The notes below the pieces were generated by a model. The model did no database searches and was not told where the DNA came from. It saw only the letters and a program-made list of their open reading frames with translations. Both the position numbers and the translations under genes were made by a program. A stretch of 64,000 nt of DNA from a phage, in sequence record PX436236.1; one strand, given 5' to 3'. This document shows, in pieces, positions 14,679-38,183 of the stretch. How positions within the stretch are numbered: position 1 is the stretch's first letter; the number at the start of each line of letters is the position of its first letter.

Positions 14679-15519
14679 TTTCGAACCTCTTTACCATGTT
14701 TATATAATTTTCGTCTGGATAACCTAAACTAACTGCTAACTTTCTAAAATTCACATATTTTGGTTTGTTATTAGCAATCCATAAATTCCTAAGCTCAGTT
14801 TCATAATTCCATTTGAGTTGATTGCCTCTAGCAGTTTTGCTCAAAGTTTTTCCTTTATCTTTTAGAGCTTTTTCCGAAGACTGTTTTAATTTTTGGAGAT
14901 TTAAAACTTCCTCAACAGATAAATTATTTTCTTCTGCATAGCGCGCACAAAAATCTTTTACTGTAGCTATTAGACAGTTTTTGTGGGTACCTAAAACTTC
15001 CGGATTATTTTCTTCAACCAAAACTCCCCAGTATCTTCGATAGCGAGGCATATCCCGCGAAATCCAGTCATTATACCAGAAATCAAAATTAGAATACATA
15101 AAGGATTTTCTTTTACGGAGAATGTCTTGCTCTATCCACTCCCCGCGTTTATCGGCCCATAACTTAATAGTAAGGTCTTTCTCTAAATCAGAAAGCTTCT
15201 TAAACTGGGCACTATTTGTTAGTGTCATTCTCTGGAATGCATTAAGCAAACCCACCACCTGAGTTGAGCACAAAAGATAATGAACATATATGTGTTGGTA
15301 TATAGGAAGATAGACCCTATTCCAAGGAGAGATTTTAAAATCGCTGTATTCTGGAAATGCACACTTCGGAAGTATATGATGAGCTTCCGTTTTAGATTTG
15401 GTATGGACGTTTAGTTTATACTTATCTATAATTTTTAAGTAATCATCTAAAAGTTCCCATTGCGGGAACTTTTCTTTAAGAACAGATTTGAAATTAATAT
15501 CCATTGTCCTGGCGTTCAA
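14671..15519 (-). CDS. HNH homing endonuclease, 282 aa
   Basis: HNH motif EAHHILPK...N...H; C-terminal LGYP..NY segment shared with the HNH gene at 50778-51542; sits in the soc-56 interval. Confidence 0.6.
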   Translation of the reverse strand: MNARTMDINFKSVLKEKFPQWELLDDYLKIIDKYKLNVHTKSKTEAHHILPKCAFPEYSDFKISPWNRVYLPIYQHIYVHYLLCSTQVVGLLNAFQRMTLTNSAQFKKLSDLEKDLTIKLWADKRGEWIEQDILRKRKSFMYSNFDFWYNDWISRDMPRYRRYWGVLVEENNPEVLGTHKNCLIATVKDFCARYAEENNLSVEEVLNLQKLKQSSEKALKDKGKTLSKTARGNQLKWNYETELRNLWIANNKPKYVNFRKLAVSLGYPDENYINMVKRFENE

Positions 15520-16012
15520 AGTTGTGTTTATTTTTCAAATAATAAAGTTTAAACATTTCTTCGGCCGTCATATTCAGGCCAATAGCCATATTGAATACGA
15601 AGTGCATGATGTCAATGAGTTCGAATTTAATTTCGAGTTGGTCTTCAGGAGACATTTCTGAAATAGGTTTGGCCTGTGCTTCTGGATAACGAGCTTTCCA
15701 TTTTTTCCAGACAGCAGATGCATCTTTCTCACCTTTAGACATTTCACCAAGTGAAGTCAGAAGTTCACGGAATTCATCGTCAATACAATCTTTCTGTTCA
15801 CGCATCCAAGCAACAACATCACCGGCTGTCGCTAATTTGTCCGGATGGTAACAATATTCACGGTCATTAGCCAAACGAACCTGTAAAGATTTCTGCATAT
15901 CAAGCATAACTTGCAGAGGGTCTTTATCTTCATGAATCAGAGCATTAAAATAAGCTTCCTCAGCTTTATCAACACCATCAATCAGGTTTGCGCATTCGTT
16001 AAAGTATGCCAT
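15494..16012 (-). CDS. 56: dCTP pyrophosphatase gp56 (MazG-like), 172 aa
   Basis: N-terminus MAYFNECANLIDG resembles T4 gp56; size and position agree. Confidence 0.8.
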   Translation of the reverse strand: MAYFNECANLIDGVDKAEEAYFNALIHEDKDPLQVMLDMQKSLQVRLANDREYCYHPDKLATAGDVVAWMREQKDCIDDEFRELLTSLGEMSKGEKDASAVWKKWKARYPEAQAKPISEMSPEDQLEIKFELIDIMHFVFNMAIGLNMTAEEMFKLYYLKNKHNFERQDNGY

Positions 16013-21275: not shown

Positions 21276-22440
21276 CTAAATTCATCTCTTCCAAATCGTT
21301 TTCGATATCAGCGGCGCTTTGGGCATTACCACCTAATTTAACAGCAACGTTCTTAGAGACACGAGAGTTAATAAGGTCGTTCACTGCATCGTCAACTTCT
21401 TTAATAGAATTAATTGCACCGAGCTTATACTTATTCTCGATTGCTTCACGGAACGGGGCATGTTTAAACAGCGGTCCCCAGAACTCGACACAATCGGTAG
21501 CTTTAGCACGCCATGCTTTTTCTTCTTGAACCATTTCGCCTGTGGTTTCGTCAAGGAATGCACGATTATACCAGCCGGCTTTAGGTTTCACGACAAAGCC
21601 AATATCAGTAGCCATTTCAAGCAATCCACTGAATGGGTCGATACCACCTTCGAAGTTCACTGTAATCGGGAACGTTGATTTCTCTTTAACCGTACGAGAT
21701 TTCTCGGCCTTCAGTGTGAAGTCATAACCAGTGAGCTCAGTACCATCTTTAACCTGACGTTTAGAGATAAAGAACACGGTAGAAGCAGAGTACAGAATAC
21801 CAGTACCACCACCCATAATCTCTTTAGGGTACATTCCACCAATTTCCATAGCCGTGTGGTTAATTGCTACACAAGGGATATCTTTGATGGTCAGATAAGG
21901 TGTTACGATACGGAACAGAGATTTCAGTGATTTAGCACGAGTCATATCACCTACAACTTTCTCGTTCAAAGCATCTTCGGTTTCTTTCTTAGAAGCAGTG
22001 TTACCAATGGAGTCGATAAAGATAATAACCTTTTCGCCACGAGTAATTTCTTCTAACTGGTTGGTCATATCAACTTTAAGCTGTTCGACTGACTGGATTG
22101 GTGTATGAACCACACGTTCCAAATCAACACCCATCGAACGGAAATAAGATTCTGAAGCACCAAACTCAGAGTCATAGAACAAACAAATTGCGTCTGGATA
22201 TTTCTTCATATATGCCGCAACCATGGTAAGTCCAAACAACGTTTTAAAGTGTTTAGATGGAGCAGCAAAGATTGTCAAACCTGATTGTAAGCCTGCATTC
22301 AACGCACCGCCTAATGCAATATTCAGCATAGGGATACGAGTAGGAACTTCGTCACGACCATTAAACAATTTAGATTTGGTCAGGTCGGCGGTCATTTTAG
22401 AAGTAGAAGCTTTAATCAAACGGGATTTTAAATCAGACAT
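21268..22440 (-). CDS. uvsX: UvsX recombinase (RecA-like), 390 aa
   Basis: N-terminus MSDLKSRLIKASTSK is near-identical to T4 UvsX. Confidence 0.92.
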   Translation of the reverse strand: MSDLKSRLIKASTSKMTADLTKSKLFNGRDEVPTRIPMLNIALGGALNAGLQSGLTIFAAPSKHFKTLFGLTMVAAYMKKYPDAICLFYDSEFGASESYFRSMGVDLERVVHTPIQSVEQLKVDMTNQLEEITRGEKVIIFIDSIGNTASKKETEDALNEKVVGDMTRAKSLKSLFRIVTPYLTIKDIPCVAINHTAMEIGGMYPKEIMGGGTGILYSASTVFFISKRQVKDGTELTGYDFTLKAEKSRTVKEKSTFPITVNFEGGIDPFSGLLEMATDIGFVVKPKAGWYNRAFLDETTGEMVQEEKAWRAKATDCVEFWGPLFKHAPFREAIENKYKLGAINSIKEVDDAVNDLINSRVSKNVAVKLGGNAQSAADIENDLEEMNLDD

Positions 22441-22480
22441 TATATTTTTCCATAGGCATCATTATATTTTACTCACGTTT

Positions 22481-22513
22481 TAAGATAGGGTAATTATATC
22501 ACTTCACATTTAC
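22481..22513 (-). promoter_or_regulatory. Promoter with extended -10 (TGATATAAT) and TACCCTATC box upstream of uvsX
   Basis: Variant of the repeated cassette; -35 element unclear. Confidence 0.35.
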
Positions 22514-22517
22514 AGCG

Positions 22518-23411
22518 TTAAAGGACCACGTCCTCATAACTTGGCATTTCGTGCTCAGAATGGATATGGGCACCGAAATAAATGAATTCAGCTAGACCAG
22601 GATGGAATACTAAACCGGGATTCTCATGATAAATGATATGAGGTCTTGATTTCAGAATCTGATAATATTCAACCTTACTCGGTTTGAATTTAATAATCTC
22701 TACATCAGGACGATAGTCTTCACGCTTAAATGAATCATTCGGATCGGTGATATAAAGGCGAGAACCTTCAGCCGCAGCTTGGTCTACAACTCTTTCGAAT
22801 TGATAACATTTATCAGAGATACGGAATGGATGGAAAATACCATCAATTTTAATAGGCGCTAGACCTTCAGAGTAACGCTCAATTACTGCAGGATTAATTA
22901 CCTTTTGGTCTACAAAAATCTTATCAGAGGATGCACCTCGTGACACCAGGACGTCTTTCTGACATTGATTCAAGACCGTAGTATAAATCGAACGTTCAAC
23001 TGAACCCACGTCGGTATCAATAAACTCATCGATGTAATAACGAGGAACTTCAGGGTCCATTGTAATGTTAAAGTTGAATTGTACGGTATGAGCACCATCA
23101 TAACCTGTGATATCGGTTACCAATCCTGAGCAGTCATAGTATTCGATTAACGAATCAACAACGAACTCATTTTCAGACCAAAAATGTTTACGAGTTTCAT
23201 AAGCATTTTCTTTATACCAAAGAGGTACAAAATTCAGTTCAGGAAATAATTCAATGCATTCTTTGATATCGCTCGAATTTCTAGGATAAGCCAGATAATC
23301 ACCTGGGCAAGCACGGTTTAAATGGAGTTGAAAATTGCCGTCCTTAAGGACGGCATATTCACCTGTTTCGTAACTACGCATACTGAAAATAGGAACGATA
23401 AACAAACTCAT
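22518..23411 (-). CDS. protein of unknown function, 297 aa, occupying the T4 beta-glucosyltransferase slot
   Basis: No resemblance to remembered T4 beta-gt; its start overlaps the gene 42 stop by 4 nt. Confidence 0.6.
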   Translation of the reverse strand: MSLFIVPIFSMRSYETGEYAVLKDGNFQLHLNRACPGDYLAYPRNSSDIKECIELFPELNFVPLWYKENAYETRKHFWSENEFVVDSLIEYYDCSGLVTDITGYDGAHTVQFNFNITMDPEVPRYYIDEFIDTDVGSVERSIYTTVLNQCQKDVLVSRGASSDKIFVDQKVINPAVIERYSEGLAPIKIDGIFHPFRISDKCYQFERVVDQAAAEGSRLYITDPNDSFKREDYRPDVEIIKFKPSKVEYYQILKSRPHIIYHENPGLVFHPGLAEFIYFGAHIHSEHEMPSYEDVVL

Positions 23412-24106
23412 TTCAGGAATCCTCGAACGTAGTCAAAATCACGTTCAAATACGTGTGCACTAACCATAGTATGGGAATACGTACCCAGACCAACACCACA
23501 CTGTTCAGCAATAAAGGCCATCAGTTTACCCTGCAGATAGAAATCCAGCTGCATAACAATAGCACAGTTCTGTGAACGCATATGGGTATGTGCATAAAGA
23601 CGTCCATCACGAATATAATATGTCACCGAATCGGTACATGGGTATTCTAAGGATTCGTCAGAATCAAGGAGGGCTTGGTCTTGTTCTTGGAGAATTTGGA
23701 ACACAACTCGTCTCGAGTTAGGCTTTTCTTTAAGCTCTTTAAGTAAGGCTGGGAGTTGGGCCACAATTCGAGGTCCATAGAAAGTGTTGAAGTTTGCAGG
23801 CAATACGTCACTTTTCGGCTTATCAATGAACTTAGCAACATTAGGATATTCCTTAAATGCTTCGGCAGCATCAGTACCACCGGAAATCATAAACTTCCAA
23901 AAGGATTCGGCATAATCATAGTTGATACGATTAATACGAGGGTCGGTGAATTTATAGGTGCTTGCATCCAGTACTTCTACCGAAGCAGAACCAATTTCAT
24001 AACAACGGCCGATACGAGAATCAACTGCAAACTGTGGAGCTTCCAGGATTTCTTCGTTCATTTGCTTAAACGCGTTTTCAAAACTAACAGCGGTAATGTG
24101 TTTCAT
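23408..24106 (-). CDS. 42: dCMP hydroxymethylase gp42 (thymidylate synthase fold), 232 aa
   Basis: PNSRRVVFQ...YPCTDSVTYYIRDG...MRSQN...QLDFY aligns to T4 gp42 and has Asp at the cytosine-specificity position. Confidence 0.8.
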   Translation of the reverse strand: MKHITAVSFENAFKQMNEEILEAPQFAVDSRIGRCYEIGSASVEVLDASTYKFTDPRINRINYDYAESFWKFMISGGTDAAEAFKEYPNVAKFIDKPKSDVLPANFNTFYGPRIVAQLPALLKELKEKPNSRRVVFQILQEQDQALLDSDESLEYPCTDSVTYYIRDGRLYAHTHMRSQNCAIVMQLDFYLQGKLMAFIAEQCGVGLGTYSHTMVSAHVFERDFDYVRGFLK

Positions 24107-24639
24107 TTATTCACCTTATTTTCAATATATTCATTCAGACGTTTTAATTCTACCATATCGACGTTAAGCAAGTTATTATGGCCGTCGTGATTTAAGATTT
24201 TAAACACGTTTTCAAAACATGTTTCGTATTGGCGGATAGTTAGGTTGAACTCATCTTTGGTTAATTTAATAAGGTCATCTTCAAAGTCTTTATCCAGTGG
24301 ATTACGGGTTAAAATAATCTCAATGATATTGAATTCTTTTTTGAAATCAATCCAATCTTCTAGTTCTACATAAGGGTCCATTTCACCACGAAGGAATCCA
24401 GAGTAAACAATATTACTAGGATACCCACGGTCTAAGATGTAGACAAAATTAGGGTCTAAAAACTTATACAACGTCTCGACTAAAGCCTTGTCATTATCAG
24501 TCCCTAATGAAATGCATTTGCCATTAATCTTTTTAGGGAAATCAATAAGACGATATTTCTTATCAGATAAAAGTGATTCAATTAAAGTAGACTTCCCGGA
24601 ATTATCCGGGCCGTCGATAACAATGATTTTTGGTTTCAC
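24103..24639 (-). CDS. P-loop kinase, 178 aa
   Basis: Walker A IIVIDGPDNSGKST at the N-terminus; stop overlaps the gene 42 start by 4 nt. Confidence 0.65.
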   Translation of the reverse strand: MKPKIIVIDGPDNSGKSTLIESLLSDKKYRLIDFPKKINGKCISLGTDNDKALVETLYKFLDPNFVYILDRGYPSNIVYSGFLRGEMDPYVELEDWIDFKKEFNIIEIILTRNPLDKDFEDDLIKLTKDEFNLTIRQYETCFENVFKILNHDGHNNLLNVDMVELKRLNEYIENKVNK

Positions 24640-25034
24640 GGATGATATGCCTTATAGGTTTCAAGAGTTCCCTCACGAACCATTTCTTTAAAGTGGTCAG
24701 GACGGATTGCTCGGTCATCGATGATAAAAGTATAACTCGGCTTATGTGTAAGCAGATTGTGATATTTCAATCCAATCTTTTCAAGGTTCTTAACTAATGC
24801 AGGAACTACTTCAACCAAGATTCGACCTGGGCCGCATGAAGTCATACCACGGGCAGTGAACAAGGTAATCTCGTACCCTTCATCATAAAGCTTATTAATC
24901 ATGGACACCATTTCGGTGTCCGGTTTAAAGTTTTCGTAATCACGGTCATGGTTCCAAATCGTGATTGTGTTATCGATGTCAAAACATAAATGAGGCTTAT
25001 TTTCTACTCGATGTGACATTAAATTTTCTTCCAT
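24636..25034 (-). CDS. HAD-superfamily phosphatase, 132 aa
   Basis: Motifs FDIDNTIT, TLFTAR and IIDDR, similar in pattern to the T4 polynucleotide kinase phosphatase domain. Confidence 0.6.
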   Translation of the reverse strand: MEENLMSHRVENKPHLCFDIDNTITIWNHDRDYENFKPDTEMVSMINKLYDEGYEITLFTARGMTSCGPGRILVEVVPALVKNLEKIGLKYHNLLTHKPSYTFIIDDRAIRPDHFKEMVREGTLETYKAYHP

Positions 25035-26692
25035 TGTTTGTGGAGTTCAGTAGAACCTGTAGGTTTATATTTTACACCAGTTTCTTGGTCAAGCAAAACC
25101 CACTTATCAGGACAACGAGTGATAATTTGAGCCGTGATAGGGTCGCGAACTTCATCAACGAATTCACCTGTGATAAGCTTACGCTTACGAGGATGTCGCT
25201 TCAGCAGCACACTCAGTTGGTACAAACCGTTGTAATAAGCACCCAGAGCTTTCAGAGGGTTATTTTTAAAGTAACCTGCCAATGCCATCCAGATAACAGC
25301 AATCCAGAGCTTGTGCTTAAATGTACACATTGGAATATCATCTAAAGGCATAACCTTTTCAATATCAACGAATACACGAGTTCCGTTACGAGTTAAGCCA
25401 CCCCATAGAGGGTCAGAGTTAAATTTGTCATAACCATCGATAGAATAAAGCACCTTAGCTTCATCATAAATCGCAGGGCCTTTAGAACTATTACCAAAAT
25501 AACCACGTGGGTCGATGATTTTAATATTACCTTCGTCCGACAACATAATATTACTGTAGTGCGGGTCGCCATGAATAAGTTGGTACGGTTCTTTATGTTC
25601 AGACAGAATTTCTAAGGCGTGACGAAGAAGTTTTTCTGGGTCGCCTACCTTGAAGTCGTTAACATGGGTAATACCCTGTGGAGCAAAGCCTTCAATCAAT
25701 CCGGCAATAGAAGCATTACGAATAAGGACCTTGTCCAATACTTCTTTCTTAACATCAGAATACCATTGCTCATCGGACGGATTATCGATAGTTCCACCGA
25801 ACGAACGTAATGCACTAATAACCTTATAAACCATTAGGACTTTAGTTTCTTTAGACATAAACCGGTAGGCATCTGCCATGGTTCGACCAAAGATACGTTC
25901 CATTTTAATGAATTCGCCTGGAGCAAAGTCTACAATGCTAGGAACGAATTCGGAATCAATAGAATTATACCAATTGATTTCTTTAGATTGGATTTCTTTA
26001 CCCAATTCGTTAGTTGGTACTTTAATAGCTAGATTCTCGGTGAACTCTAATTTATTAAATTCACGGTTAATTTCAGAATCTTCATGCGCCTTAGCCAGTT
26101 TCAGTTTGTCACCAACATCAACTACAAAGTCTAACTTACGTTCAGTCAAATGGACCATTGAATCCAGGTTGTCAGCAAGGTCTTCACCATAATTAGAACG
26201 GTCGAAACCTGTCCAATTAGCCACCTGATACAAGCCAACTACGCCACCACCGGTACCAATTTCACGCAAGTACGGTTCTTCAAATGTAAAACGACAGTCA
26301 GTCCCATAGGTATAACAGTAGTCGTTATCCCACTCAACTTTATGACCTTCAGGAATAATATCACACCAGTTAAACAAGACATTGTGCCCAATGATATCTT
26401 CGGCAATGCAATCGATAGCATGAGCCGAACCATTGGCAACATCAACGTTACGAATAGTGAATTTAGGCTTATCACTATTAATCATGTTAATGGATTTAAT
26501 ATAGCCTTTAACGAGGTCGTTAAATTTGCTGTGAATAACCAGAATAATTTCATCTGATTGATTACTATACAAATCATACAAATGTTTTAATACAGTATGT
26601 TGTTTGTAGTTAACCAGTACCTTCGGGATTTCGTTGGTAATTGGATACAACCGTGAGCCAAGACCCGCGCCTAAAATAACAACCTTTTTCAT
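25019..26692 (-). CDS. bifunctional nucleotidyltransferase (N-terminal) / APH-choline-kinase-like kinase (C-terminal), 557 aa
   Basis: N-terminal VVILGAGLGSRLYPIT...KVLV signature; C-terminal HGDPHYSNIM...IIDPRG; start set at MKKVV, preceded by GAGGAA. Confidence 0.65.
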   Translation of the reverse strand: MKKVVILGAGLGSRLYPITNEIPKVLVNYKQHTVLKHLYDLYSNQSDEIILVIHSKFNDLVKGYIKSINMINSDKPKFTIRNVDVANGSAHAIDCIAEDIIGHNVLFNWCDIIPEGHKVEWDNDYCYTYGTDCRFTFEEPYLREIGTGGGVVGLYQVANWTGFDRSNYGEDLADNLDSMVHLTERKLDFVVDVGDKLKLAKAHEDSEINREFNKLEFTENLAIKVPTNELGKEIQSKEINWYNSIDSEFVPSIVDFAPGEFIKMERIFGRTMADAYRFMSKETKVLMVYKVISALRSFGGTIDNPSDEQWYSDVKKEVLDKVLIRNASIAGLIEGFAPQGITHVNDFKVGDPEKLLRHALEILSEHKEPYQLIHGDPHYSNIMLSDEGNIKIIDPRGYFGNSSKGPAIYDEAKVLYSIDGYDKFNSDPLWGGLTRNGTRVFVDIEKVMPLDDIPMCTFKHKLWIAVIWMALAGYFKNNPLKALGAYYNGLYQLSVLLKRHPRKRKLITGEFVDEVRDPITAQIITRCPDKWVLLDQETGVKYKPTGSTELHKQWKKI

Positions 26693-26752
26693 TATCTGTT
26701 CCTCAAGTGAATGTAGGTACATTATACACTATTTTTAATAAATTGGTATTGC

Positions 26753-27253
26753 TTAAATCTTATCTTTACCGATTTCAATACACTGTTCTATTGCCGCCGG
26801 TGCTTTGGTCTTGAGCTTATCGATTTGTTTCTTATAATCACGAGCTTTACCGAAGCTCTCGGTTTCGAGCATTTCGTAATAACGAGCCTCGTGGATGGAA
26901 ATCTGTAGATTGATATGGTTTACGCACATCGCATACAGTTTCTGCTTTTTGTACAAATCATCTTGACGCTTCATTTCTGCCTGGTGTTTGGCTAGTACCG
27001 CTTCACGCTTGGACTCTTGTTCACGTTGGAATTCGATTTCTTGTTGAGCATATTTTGCACAGTTATTACCGCATTGATTATTAGCTCGGGTGTACACAAG
27101 TCCAGAACCTGCACGGAATTTCATTTCGCCATCGAATTGTTTCTGTTCAGCTGCGATACGAGCTTTACCAACTTCATCAGCCGAAACTGCATCACCATAT
27201 TGGACCGCGCAACCTGATAGGAGCATACTCATTGCGATAATTAACTTTTTCAT
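26753..27253 (-). CDS. lipoprotein, 166 aa
   Basis: Signal peptide with lipobox LLSGC; coiled-coil-like remainder. Confidence 0.55.
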   Translation of the reverse strand: MKKLIIAMSMLLSGCAVQYGDAVSADEVGKARIAAEQKQFDGEMKFRAGSGLVYTRANNQCGNNCAKYAQQEIEFQREQESKREAVLAKHQAEMKRQDDLYKKQKLYAMCVNHINLQISIHEARYYEMLETESFGKARDYKKQIDKLKTKAPAAIEQCIEIGKDKI

Positions 27254-27260
27254 AATATCC

Positions 27261-27398
27261 TCAATTAAAACAGTTATACTTAATTTGTGCTATAAGAATA
27301 ATCCATCCAATGATGAGTGTCGGAATCATTGGCGGAATTGCCACTGCCCAATAAATGGTAAAGGCGGTCATTATAAGAAATAAAATAATTATTTTCAT
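27261..27398 (-). CDS. possible small membrane protein, 45 aa
   Basis: Own translation MKIIILFLIMTAFTIYWAVAIPPMIPTLIIGWIILIAQIKYNCFN; ATG overlaps the upstream stop. Confidence 0.35.
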   Translation of the reverse strand: MKIIILFLIMTAFTIYWAVAIPPMIPTLIIGWIILIAQIKYNCFN

Positions 27399-27631
27399 TG
27401 CTTAACAATAATGATTTGTGCGTTTGATTTACGTTCAGCGACGATAGCCCAGATTAAAGCCACTACCCAACCAATCATCGTCCAGCCTAACAGGAGATTA
27501 AGGAAGAAAATTCCGACATTACTACGAGTGCCTCGCAGAAGAGCCAGAATCCATGGTAAAAAGTAACCGATGAACATAATAACCAGAGAACCGAATCCTA
27601 AAACACCAGCACTAACGATTAAAGCTTCCAT
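27395..27631 (-). CDS. two-TM membrane protein, 78 aa, candidate Imm (immunity to superinfection)
   Basis: Hydrophobic two-helix protein directly upstream of the operon, the position of T4 imm. Confidence 0.5.
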   Translation of the reverse strand: MEALIVSAGVLGFGSLVIMFIGYFLPWILALLRGTRSNVGIFFLNLLLGWTMIGWVVALIWAIVAERKSNAQIIIVKQ

Positions 27632-36993: not shown

Positions 36994-37133
36994 AAGCCAA
37001 GCGCCGTTATTGCAATGCAAAATAAAATTATTGAAATGAACCCGTCAGGAGTGGAAAAGAATCCTATCCAACAAGCTCGTGTGAATGTGTAGAATGCCAT
37101 GAATAACACGACATATCCTAAAAGTAGTTCCAT
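36990..37133 (-). CDS. possible small membrane protein, 47 aa
   Basis: Own translation MELLLGYVVLFMAFYTFTRACWIGFFSTPDGFISIILFCIAITALGL; GGAGAA RBS; stop overlaps the gp47 start. Confidence 0.4.
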   Translation of the reverse strand: MELLLGYVVLFMAFYTFTRACWIGFFSTPDGFISIILFCIAITALGL

Positions 37134-37153
37134 ATGTTCTCCTCAGTTGGTTC

Positions 37154-37178
37154 ATTTTATCATCCAAATATAAAGCAA
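37154..37178 (-). promoter_or_regulatory. Candidate middle promoter
   Basis: TTGCTTTA (MotA-box-like), 11 nt, TAAAAT. Confidence 0.35.
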
Positions 37179-37198
37179 AAAAGGAGCCTAAGCTCCTT
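37175..37198 (-). terminator. Terminator hairpin (AAGGAGC-UUAG-GCUCCUU) with U6
   Basis: Perfect stem followed by TTTTTTGC on the minus strand. Confidence 0.5.
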
Positions 37199-37419
37199 TA
37201 CCAACTAATACACCGTACAGAGGTTCGTGATTAGACCTGAACTTGATAGGCTTATAGGTAATAGTACCTTCATTTTCTGCTTTAATACGAGCGGCTTCAA
37301 ATTTAAGTATCATCTCATTTTTGTCAGATTTAATCTTATCAAAATCCATCGAATTCGTCATTCATACAACCTCTTAAACTTTTTCGTATTCGTCTTTCAT
37401 TAGCCGCCTGTCCACGTTA

Positions 37420-37620
37420 TCATCGTTGCCACCATTTCTTAAGTTGATGAGAATCTACCCAAACCTTGGCTACGGGCTCAATCCGAAAAATTCCATCGGA
37501 ATACTGGCCGACCATTTTATATTCGGTTTCGGACTGCTTAATACAGATATTACCGTATGAGCGAAGTCTAAAGGCGGCTCCAATAAGAAGCCGTTTAAAG
37601 GGTTTATTTACTAGGGCCAT
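37420..37620 (-). CDS. hypothetical protein, 66 aa
   Basis: ORF. Confidence 0.4.
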   Translation of the reverse strand: MALVNKPFKRLLIGAAFRLRSYGNICIKQSETEYKMVGQYSDGIFRIEPVAKVWVDSHQLKKWWQR

Positions 37621-37915
37621 TGACGATTTCCCAAATTTGTTTGCGGGTAGATTCCCACATCAATTGAACAAGTTCATCAGTAACAGGTTGACGGTAAATA
37701 CCACGTAATTTAATTAAAGCGTACTTATATGCTTCAAAGTTGTTTTCAAGTACAGCGCCTTGGGCATGGAGATTTAAACGACGGATTTCACGAGCATTCT
37801 TCTTAAGAATCTTAGCCGCTTGAGAATTAGCTTCTTTAATATTGTGCTCTTCTAAACGTTGCTGGGCTTCTTCAATTTGCTCATCAGTCAATTGAGAAAT
37901 GTCATGGCTTTGCAT
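37604..37915 (-). CDS. hypothetical protein, 103 aa
   Basis: ORF. Confidence 0.5.
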   Translation of the reverse strand: MQSHDISQLTDEQIEEAQQRLEEHNIKEANSQAAKILKKNAREIRRLNLHAQGAVLENNFEAYKYALIKLRGIYRQPVTDELVQLMWESTRKQIWEIVNGPSK

Positions 37916-37916
37916 A

Positions 37917-38183
37917 TTAATCCTTTGGAGTCAATTCAATAGTGAAGTAGAAATTAGCGTTCTCAACATGATAACGGTAATCTACGTTATTGTCAGGAGA
38001 AGTGAATTCAATATTCCTGACGTTAAGTGGGTCAATATCAATAGGAAGACCTTTAACATCCCGTAATATCAATTTAATAAAATAAGGGAGTGCTTCGAAG
38101 TCTTCCATTCCATCTAAAAGTGGAGTGATATTAATCTGATGTTCCATATAAAAAATCCAGTTCACCAACTTTAGGTTGGGCAC
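37917..38183 (-). CDS. hypothetical protein, up to 88 aa
   Basis: ORF; start uncertain because it overlaps the gp55 C-terminus. Confidence 0.4.

Follow-up and report, generated by a model that had tools for sequence, protein, structure and literature searches.

Gene content of the locus

A string of five minus-strand genes was found at positions 22518-26692, between uvsX and imm/gp43, in a 64,000-nucleotide stretch of phage DNA (sequence record PX436236.1; hereinafter referred to as the window). The genes encode a nucleotidyltransferase/kinase fusion protein, a HAD phosphatase, a thymidylate-kinase-like (Tmk-like) P-loop kinase, a thymidylate synthase (ThyA) homologue, and a protein of 297 amino acids (aa) (Table 1). 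All five open reading frames (ORFs) were present where the original prediction, made from the nucleotide letters, had placed them. That prediction regarded them as a DNA-hypermodification module replacing the glucosyltransferase arrangement of phage T4, a view which is sustained by homologies to proteins of phage RB69 and by the lack of T4-type alpha- and beta-glucosyltransferases (alpha-gt and beta-gt).

In a megablast search, positions 22400-27300 showed 98% identity to Escherichia phage WG01 over the full length, and the next-closest relatives were QL01, Bp7, IME08, JS10, and JS98. WG01 is classed as a Dhakavirus, and the source of the window is, judged by this similarity, a Dhakavirus, i.e., a T4-like coliphage of the JS98/WG01 type. 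The window corresponds to the left end of a T4-like genome, including rIIA, gene 39, dda, modA/B, gp56, primase, gp41, gp40, and uvsX. The complete genome of WG01, the closest relative, was searched beside the window for genome-wide absences.

Table 1. Features of the modification locus and its surroundings in the window, with predicted functions.
Feature	Position	Strand	Size	Remarks
Putative first (base-proximal) DNA arabinosyltransferase	22518..23411	-	297 aa	Homologue of RB69 gp46:47 and DLP3 gp79
Predicted 5-hydroxy-dCMP synthase (dCMP 5-hydroxylase, thymidylate synthase superfamily)	23408..24106	-	232 aa	RB69 gp48 homology, active-site residues
Thymidylate-kinase-like P-loop nucleotide kinase	24103..24639	-	178 aa	GTG start; RB69 gp45 homologue
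AfhF-like HAD phosphatase (predicted)	24636..25034	-	127 aa from ATG 25019, or 132 aa from ATG 25034	
AfhE-like bifunctional enzyme (predicted)	25019..26692	-	557 aa	N-terminal nucleotidyltransferase and C-terminal APH-type kinase
Upstream region of the string (candidate promoter)	26693..26752	-	60 nt	Shine-Dalgarno sequence GAGGAA and extended -10-like TGTATAAT, read directly from the sequence
gp56 dCTPase/dUTPase	15494..16012	-	172 aa	76% identity to WG01 ORF annotated gp56 dCTPase
Lipoprotein-like ORF	26753-27253	-	166 aa	Signal MKKLIIAMSMLLSGC, lipobox LSGC at residue 12; phrog_1754 (unknown function)
Small, very hydrophobic ORF	27261-27398	-	45 aa	MKIIILFLIMTAFTIYWAVAIPP...; 58% identity over 36 aa to RB69 gp54
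imm	27395-27631	-		Between modification cluster and gp43, T4-like

The ThyA homologue as a predicted 5-hydroxy-dCMP synthase

The ThyA homologue exhibited 79% amino acid sequence identity to RB69 gp48, whereas identity to T4 gp42 was merely 25% over 159 residues. It was assigned to Pfam PF00303 and matched the PDB entries 9iqu/9iqc/9ir2 with an E-value of 1.5e-125. Its active site was aligned with those of Escherichia coli ThyA, the canonical thymidylate synthase of WG01, T4 gp42, and RB69 gp48. In E. coli ThyA numbering, the catalytic Cys146 (PCT motif) was retained, Leu143 was replaced by Glu, and Asn177, the position of specificity for deoxycytidine monophosphate (dCMP), was replaced by Asp. 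Further, Asp169 was replaced by Asn, giving RSQN in the window protein versus RSCD in E. coli and RSND in T4 gp42. Thus, the protein showed neither the retained Asp169 nor the close similarity that would mark the T4 gp42 pattern.

Asn at the position of ThyA Asp169 has been proposed as a diagnostic mark of 5-hydroxy-dCMP synthases, and all of nine additional 169-Asn homologues tested made 5-hydroxycytosine (5hoC) (PMC13326640). For RB69 gp48 and DLP3 gp80, conversion of dCMP to 5-hydroxy-dCMP (5hodCMP) has been reported, with the product identified by liquid chromatography-mass spectrometry; 18O2 labelling revealed incorporation of oxygen derived from O2, and the purified enzyme contained a flavin resembling flavin mononucleotide (PMC13326640). 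Flavin- and O2-dependent formation of 5hodCMP is given in that source for RB69 gp48 and, by citation, for the HY126 enzyme. Since the 169-Asn signature was present and the gp42 pattern was absent, the ThyA homologue should be a flavin-dependent dCMP 5-hydroxylase and not a dCMP hydroxymethylase. The modified base should accordingly differ from hydroxymethylcytosine (hmC), being 5-hydroxycytosine with a sugar ether-linked directly to C5.

Predicted enzymes of sugar activation

The fusion protein showed Pfam matches to NTP_transferase (34.3 bits, cut-off 21.2; residues 13-110) and APH (26 bits, cut-off 23.2; residues 356-427), with residues counted in the 567-aa mechanical ORF. The motifs GLGSRL and HGDPHYSN were found at residues 10 and 374, respectively. 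The protein was 44% identical to RB69 gp53 and 41% identical to RB69 gp52, which correspond to one gene. By its likeness to AfhE, the N-terminal part would function as UDP-arabinose pyrophosphorylase and the C-terminal part as arabinose-5-phosphate 1-kinase, the AfhE function being used here in the form summarised in PMC13326640.

The HAD protein exhibited 63% identity to RB69 gp51 and matched PDB entries 9iqw (E = 5.4e-55) and 1xpj (3.5e-12), as well as phrog_1238 (3.5e-42) and phrog_415, a polynucleotide kinase family (3.1e-6). It contained DIDNT (DxDxT, motif I) at residue 14, TAR at residue 55, and DD at residue 101. AfhF is summarised as a Mg-dependent phosphatase converting arabinose 1,5-bisphosphate to arabinose 1-phosphate (He et al., in the summary given by PMC13326640), and the HAD protein is predicted by homology to be an arabinofuranose-1,5-bisphosphate 5-phosphatase. 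The homologies of the fusion and HAD proteins support the earlier proposal that the activated donor, here a sugar nucleotide, is synthesised by the phage itself.

The 297-aa putative arabinosyltransferase

The 297-aa protein showed 67% identity over 297 aa to concatenated RB69 gp46:47, where gp47 and gp46 represent one gene split by a sequencing error, and matched phrog_3891 with an E-value of 7.9e-159. A GT-B glycosyltransferase fold was found, and members of the family in Acinetobacter phages were approximately 50% identical. The gene lies directly downstream of the ThyA homologue, which is the slot held by beta-gt in T4, and annotated family matches show the same adjacency. The original prediction had picked this protein as the candidate transferase, which fits its homology to RB69 gp46:47 and DLP3 gp79 and its GT-B fold; it is a putative transferase of arabinofuranose from the UDP donor to 5-hydroxycytosine.

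When the family was compared by hhalign with T4 beta-gt and T4 alpha-gt, the probability was <1%, and no sequence-level relationship was detected; the same held for RB69 gp3, the second arabinosyltransferase of that phage. Descent of the 297-aa protein from beta-gt was considered and is not claimed in view of the negative hhalign result, despite the common position and fold class. In addition, tblastn searches with T4 alpha-gt (best E = 0.027) and beta-gt (best E = 1.3) returned no homologue from either the window or the complete genome of WG01. The gap between gp47 and gp55 (36994-38133) measures 1.1 kb in the window, and the WG01 interval contains small ORFs only. The earlier observations that a beta-gt-like protein is missing and that no alpha-gt-like protein lies between genes 47 and 55 were thus confirmed. 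The corresponding T4 interval was described too narrowly as holding only imm, 42, and beta-gt, since segA and imm.1 are also found there.

The Tmk-like kinase

The Tmk-like kinase exhibited 37% identity to RB69 gp45, matched phrog_761 ("thymidylate kinase") at 2e-39, and carried the Walker A motif GPDNSGKS at residue 10. In RB69, DLP3, and the Rhizobium phage RL38J1, which uses hexoses, a Tmk-like kinase gene is located beside genes for a glycosyltransferase and a 169-Asn ThyA homologue (PMC13326640, Table 1). Because this trio recurs even in RL38J1, the kinase is assigned to the nucleotide branch of the pathway and not to the sugar branch, and its predicted role, the least certain step of the pathway, is phosphorylation of the modified dCMP. 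An RB69 gp1-type general deoxynucleoside monophosphate (dNMP) kinase already phosphorylates 5hodCMP (PMC13326640), and for this reason the additional kinase could be specialised or could have a glycosylated nucleotide as its substrate.

A minimal gene set and predicted mono-arabinosylation

Several genes of the RB69-type system were missing. The arabinose-5-phosphate isomerase (RB69 gp55) gave no tblastn match in the window, and the best E-value in the complete WG01 genome was 1.7. The gp3-type second arabinosyltransferase gave no tblastn match in the window or in WG01 (best E = 0.92). RB69 gp3 sits between rIIA and gene 39, and the gap between these two genes, approximately 0.8 kb here, held small ORFs only. 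No homologue of the U32-like RB69 gp50 was found by tblastn in the window or in complete WG01.

U32-family proteins take part in the formation of 5-hydroxypyrimidines in RNA. RB69 gp50 (L001 8493-9662) is a U32 "peptidase"-like gene within the RB69 cluster, and its absence in Dhakaviruses suggests that the core pathway can do without gp50.

Across 50,697 phage records, the family of the 297-aa protein was found in 353, arabinose-5-phosphate isomerase in 276, and the gp3 family in 212. The gp3 family was restricted to Mosigvirus-like Escherichia/Shigella phages, Acinetobacter phages, and one record named Tegunavirus. By these counts, the Dhakaviruses belong to a sizeable single-transferase group. 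Two partial records of "phage Ec2-ASingh" (PQ561406 and PQ561417) combine, under one name, a Dhakavirus-type cluster (100 kb record) with Mosigvirus-type isomerase and gp3 (74 kb record), and two phages were probably mixed in this deposit.

Ten larger unassigned ORFs of WG01 were inspected for a further transferase, and no glycosyltransferase signal was obtained (Pfam for ten, PHROGs for five, and the T4 nrdC region for three); ORF86 (336 aa) proved homologous to T4 NrdC.4. As only one transferase is present, the DNA of the phage is expected to contain mono-arabinosyl-5-hydroxycytosine and not to be poly-arabinosylated. E. coli KdsD and GutQ make arabinose 5-phosphate for the synthesis of 3-deoxy-D-manno-octulosonic acid (Kdo). 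Since the phage is without its own isomerase, it would depend on the host for arabinose 5-phosphate. Shewanella phage Thanatos, which has a single syntenic arabinosyltransferase (ara-GT), has been described as mono-arabinosylated (PMC13326640).

Proposed pathway

The five-gene string very probably encodes the published cytosine-arabinosylation pathway in compact form, giving mono-arabinosyl-5-hydroxycytosine. What the present analysis adds is the sequence homologies, the residue signature of the active site, the GT-B fold, and the finding that neither the isomerase nor any other known transferase is present. The hydroxylase chemistry, the AfhE and AfhF reactions, and the structure of arabinosyl-5-hydroxycytosine are taken from the papers on the homologues. 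From both we infer the role of the Tmk-like kinase, the dependence on host arabinose 5-phosphate, mono- and not poly-arabinosylation, and transfer onto DNA and not onto the nucleotide.

In the nucleotide branch, gp56 would convert dCTP to dCMP. Although gp56 is encoded outside the five-gene string, it belongs to the same pathway, acting in dCMP supply and dCTP removal. The ThyA-like enzyme would then hydroxylate C5 of dCMP using O2 and reduced flavin, yielding 5-hydroxy-dCMP. The diphosphate would be formed by the Tmk-like kinase, the phage gp1 dNMP kinase, or both, and the triphosphate by host nucleoside diphosphate kinase, after which gp43 polymerase would incorporate 5-hydroxy-dCTP instead of dCTP.

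In the sugar branch, D-arabinose 5-phosphate would be supplied by the host isomerases KdsD/GutQ and phosphorylated at C1 by the C-terminal kinase domain of the fusion enzyme. The HAD phosphatase would remove the 5-phosphate, and the N-terminal nucleotidyltransferase domain would produce UDP-arabinofuranose from arabinofuranose 1-phosphate and UTP. Finally, the 297-aa GT-B enzyme would place arabinose on the 5-hydroxyl group. The resulting mono-arabinosyl-5-hydroxycytosine would protect the DNA from restriction enzymes and some CRISPR systems.

Some points weigh against this pathway. No published chemical analysis of Dhakavirus DNA (JS98, JS10, IME08, Bp7, WG01, or QL01) was found. No reconstitution of the first arabosyl transfer is reported in PMC13326640, in which single purified DLP3 glycosyltransferases were inactive on 5hoC DNA with UDP-arabinose. 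Further, the GT-fold protein TH1_063 of Thanatos (approximately 300 aa) was reported to have UDP-xylose pyrophosphorylase activity in vitro (PMC12838424), which conflicts with a transferase role for the 297-aa family, whereas Lee et al. treated TH1_063 as the syntenic ara-GT (PMC13326640). The fusion enzyme and the Tmk-like kinase were only 37-44% identical to their RB69 counterparts, compared with 63-79% for the hydroxylase, transferase, and phosphatase, and because of this greater divergence the sugar specificity could differ from that of RB69. A cryptic second transferase may also have escaped detection, given that the 297-aa family is itself invisible to Pfam and that the check covered ten larger unassigned WG01 ORFs.

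Alternative explanations

The ThyA homologue was originally taken for the gene 42 dCMP hydroxymethylase and the modified base for hmC. The self-made sugar would then be attached to hmC, like in the 2018 "arabinosyl-hmC" model of RB69, which was used by Thomas et al. (2018) and in later genome annotations. Membership in the thymidylate synthase superfamily (Pfam PF00303) agrees with such an enzyme, and the window protein shares with T4 gp42 both Asp at the Asn177 position and an acidic residue at the Leu143 position. However, position 169 is Asn in the window protein and Asp in T4 gp42, and the far closer relative is RB69 gp48, an enzyme that makes 5hodCMP with flavin and oxygen from O2. Moreover, the hmC assignment of RB69 has been called wrong (PMC13326640; PMC13390438), the latter study having independently found 5-ara-dC and 5-ara-ara-dC in a Mosigvirus. 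A hydroxymethylase with an hmC product is therefore highly improbable, and both earlier assignments are replaced here by 5-hydroxylation and 5-hydroxycytosine. As another option, the original prediction had named a split polynucleotide-kinase/phosphatase-like pair made up of the kinase and HAD proteins; such a polynucleotide kinase/3'-phosphatase (Pnk) would act in nucleic-acid end repair and have nothing to do with DNA modification. The P-loop kinase gene does adjoin the HAD gene, and the HAD protein weakly matched phrog_415, but its similarity to phrog_1238, PDB 9iqw, and RB69 gp51 places it far better in the AfhF-type family, and the kinase matched the Tmk-like phrog_761 and RB69 gp45. A complete, full-length PseT is encoded elsewhere in the close relative WG01. 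The split-pair option was rejected on these grounds and retains hardly any credibility.

Two further explanations keep 5-hydroxycytosine as the base and depart from the proposed pathway in how it is glycosylated. It appears unlikely that the base carries a sugar other than arabinose, or that the single transferase builds chains processively. The lack of a phage arabinose-5-phosphate isomerase and the lower identity of the fusion enzyme to RB69 (41-44%) would be compatible with this, as would the hexoses found on 5hoC in phage RL38J1 (PMC13326640) and the activity on xylose 1-phosphate reported for a Thanatos homologue (PMC12838424). On the other hand, the phosphatase and the transferase are close to arabinose-pathway enzymes, the fusion architecture matches that of AfhE, and Thanatos, with one transferase, is described as carrying a single arabinose. 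It is also textbook knowledge that arabinose 5-phosphate is made in E. coli by KdsD/GutQ. Improbable to a similar degree is a first arabinosylation at the level of the free nucleotide, with the Tmk-like kinase serving bulky 5-hydroxy-dCMP or arabinosyl-5-hydroxy-dCMP that a general dNMP kinase would handle poorly, and all other steps as proposed above. The kinase, hydroxylase, and transferase genes follow one another in that order with 4-nt overlaps, and the same trio recurs in RB69, DLP3, and RL38J1. Published experiments do not separate nucleotide-level from DNA-level first arabinosylation, and the inactivity of single transferases on 5hoC DNA would also suit this scheme (PMC13326640). Nevertheless, the RB69 gp1-type dNMP kinase accepts 5hodCMP, and co-expression led to 5hodC in DNA (PMC13326640); DNA is the acceptor in every known sugar transfer of the T-even phages and in the later arabinose additions, and gene overlaps are common in this genome.

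Comparison with known systems

DNA of RB69 and of Acinetobacter phage DLP3 has been found to contain 5-hydroxycytosine bearing one to three arabinose units, with an ether link between the sugar and C5, and Dhakaviruses are among the genera to which comparative genomics extended the conserved cluster (Lee et al., NAR 2026, PMC13326640). The occurrence of an arabinosyl-5-hydroxycytosine cluster in Dhakaviruses is thus already known, and after the papers of 2025-2026 it is no new kind of biology.

The string shares with the RB69-type cluster its location between uvsX and DNA polymerase and five components, namely the 169-Asn ThyA homologue, the first arabinosyltransferase, the HAD phosphatase, the fusion enzyme, and the Tmk-like kinase. 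It differs in that the window and WG01 are without the isomerase gp55, the second transferase gp3, and the U32-like gp50. The kinase gene adjoins uvsX in RB69, whereas it lies between the HAD and hydroxylase genes in the window, where imm and the lipoprotein gene also separate the cluster from gp43. RB69 DNA is mono- plus di-arabinosylated, while the phage of the window is expected to be mono-arabinosylated only. The cluster of the Mosigviruses RB69, HY126, and Bas46-47 is reportedly also treated by He et al. in Nat Chem Biol 2026 and by Mahler et al. in Cell Host Microbe 2025.

DLP3 possesses homologues of all five genes, but it differs from the window phage in having three transferases, its own isomerase, and tri-arabinosylated cytosine. 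A minimal set similar to that of the window, consisting of a 561-aa fusion protein, a ThyA homologue, and one GT-fold protein of approximately 300 aa, has been described in Thanatos (PMC12838424); host and phage lineage are distant, and the likeness is drawn from the description and not from direct sequence comparison. The glucosyl-hmC system of T4 differs in the formation of the base, which proceeds by folate-dependent hydroxymethylation in T4 and would proceed by flavin/O2-dependent hydroxylation in the window phage. In the latter, the sugar would be ether-linked to C5, and the donor would be phage-made UDP-arabinofuranose instead of the host UDP-glucose used by T4. As given above, the transferases of T4 also lack sequence similarity to the 297-aa protein.

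Gene layout and neighbouring features

Three of the four junctions in the string were 4-nt overlaps: GTGA between the kinase and HAD genes, ATGA between the ThyA-like and kinase genes, and ATGA between the 297-aa ORF and the ThyA-like gene. The HAD and fusion genes overlap by 16 nt if the HAD gene starts at 25034, or by 1 nt (TAATG) if it starts at 25019. The start at 25019 is the more probable one, in agreement with WG01, RB69 gp51, and PDB 9iqw. The overlaps of 4-16 nt throughout the string that had been predicted thus stand for three junctions, whereas the fourth more probably measures 1 nt. For the fusion gene, the mechanical ORF runs to 26722 (567 aa), but the start at 26692, as chosen in the original prediction, is preferred: GAGGAA is located six bases upstream, the WG01 annotation matches, and the RB69 alignment begins there.

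In the first 50 kb of WG01 (1-50 kb), 37 of the 92 adjacent gene pairs (40%) overlap, with runs of five and six consecutive overlaps outside this string. Translational coupling is real, but it is weak evidence for a functional unit because overlaps are so common in the genome; the functional link proposed among the five genes comes from homology and not from the overlaps.

In the 60-nt region upstream of the string, the extended -10-like TGTATAAT precedes the Shine-Dalgarno sequence of the fusion gene by approximately 20 nt, and ATG 26722 falls inside this -10-like element. The region is a candidate promoter only. A scan for consensus sigma-70 promoters did not list this element, and the sigma-70 promoter/terminator scan yielded 18 sites versus 17.6 expected from shuffled sequences, showing no enrichment and defining no transcription unit.

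Compared with WG01, a 24-nt indel was found at about 24987-25015, at the 5' end of the HAD phosphatase gene, which was the sole length difference within the 4.9-kb region. The window keeps the N-terminus MSHRVENKPHLCFD, resembling RB69 gp51 and PDB 9iqw, while WG01 has a shorter one beginning with MHLCFD. The gp56 protein was 76% identical to its WG01 counterpart, versus 97-100% for the modification genes and gp47/gp55, and by this comparison gp56 is a mosaic patch within an otherwise near-identical genome.

The 166-aa lipoprotein-like ORF, between the modification genes and imm, was 99% identical to WG01 ORF47, and no counterpart was found among RB69 gp45-gp55. It falls inside the range given in the original prediction (22518-27253), where it had been left undescribed. 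Its position beside imm suggests a possible role in superinfection exclusion or in the envelope. The 45-aa ORF resembles a small, conserved membrane peptide encoded next to imm; its relative RB69 gp54 bears the annotation "similar to T4 42-imm intercistronic region". RB69 differs in that its imm (L001 1012-1260) lies far upstream, close to sp and gene 61.x, and that the place next to gp43 is taken by the isomerase gene.

Implications for Dhakavirus biology

With one transferase, no phage isomerase, and a sugar-activating enzyme strongly diverged from that of RB69, the Dhakavirus pathway might, with rather low probability, prove to be a stripped-down form with a chemistry of its own. Such a form could involve strict use of arabinose 5-phosphate from the host Kdo pathway and an exclusively mono-arabinosylated genome or, more radically, a different pentose or a nucleotide-level first glycosylation involving the Tmk-like kinase.

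The main value of the analysis lies in a correction. The genes are labelled in databases as "thymidylate synthase / dCMP hydroxymethylase", "thymidylate kinase", "phosphoheptose isomerase", or "hypothetical protein", and these labels lead readers to hydroxymethylcytosine, whereas the evidence points to arabinosyl-5-hydroxycytosine. With the latter base, the phage DNA should be sensitive and resistant to other sets of restriction enzymes, type IV systems such as BrxU/GmrSD, DNA glycosylases, and CRISPR, which is relevant to the use of Dhakaviruses as therapeutic and biocontrol coliphages. If the proposed pathway is true, the compact set of five genes plus host arabinose 5-phosphate would also offer a convenient minimal system for reconstitution, from which a clean mono-arabosylated product would be expected.

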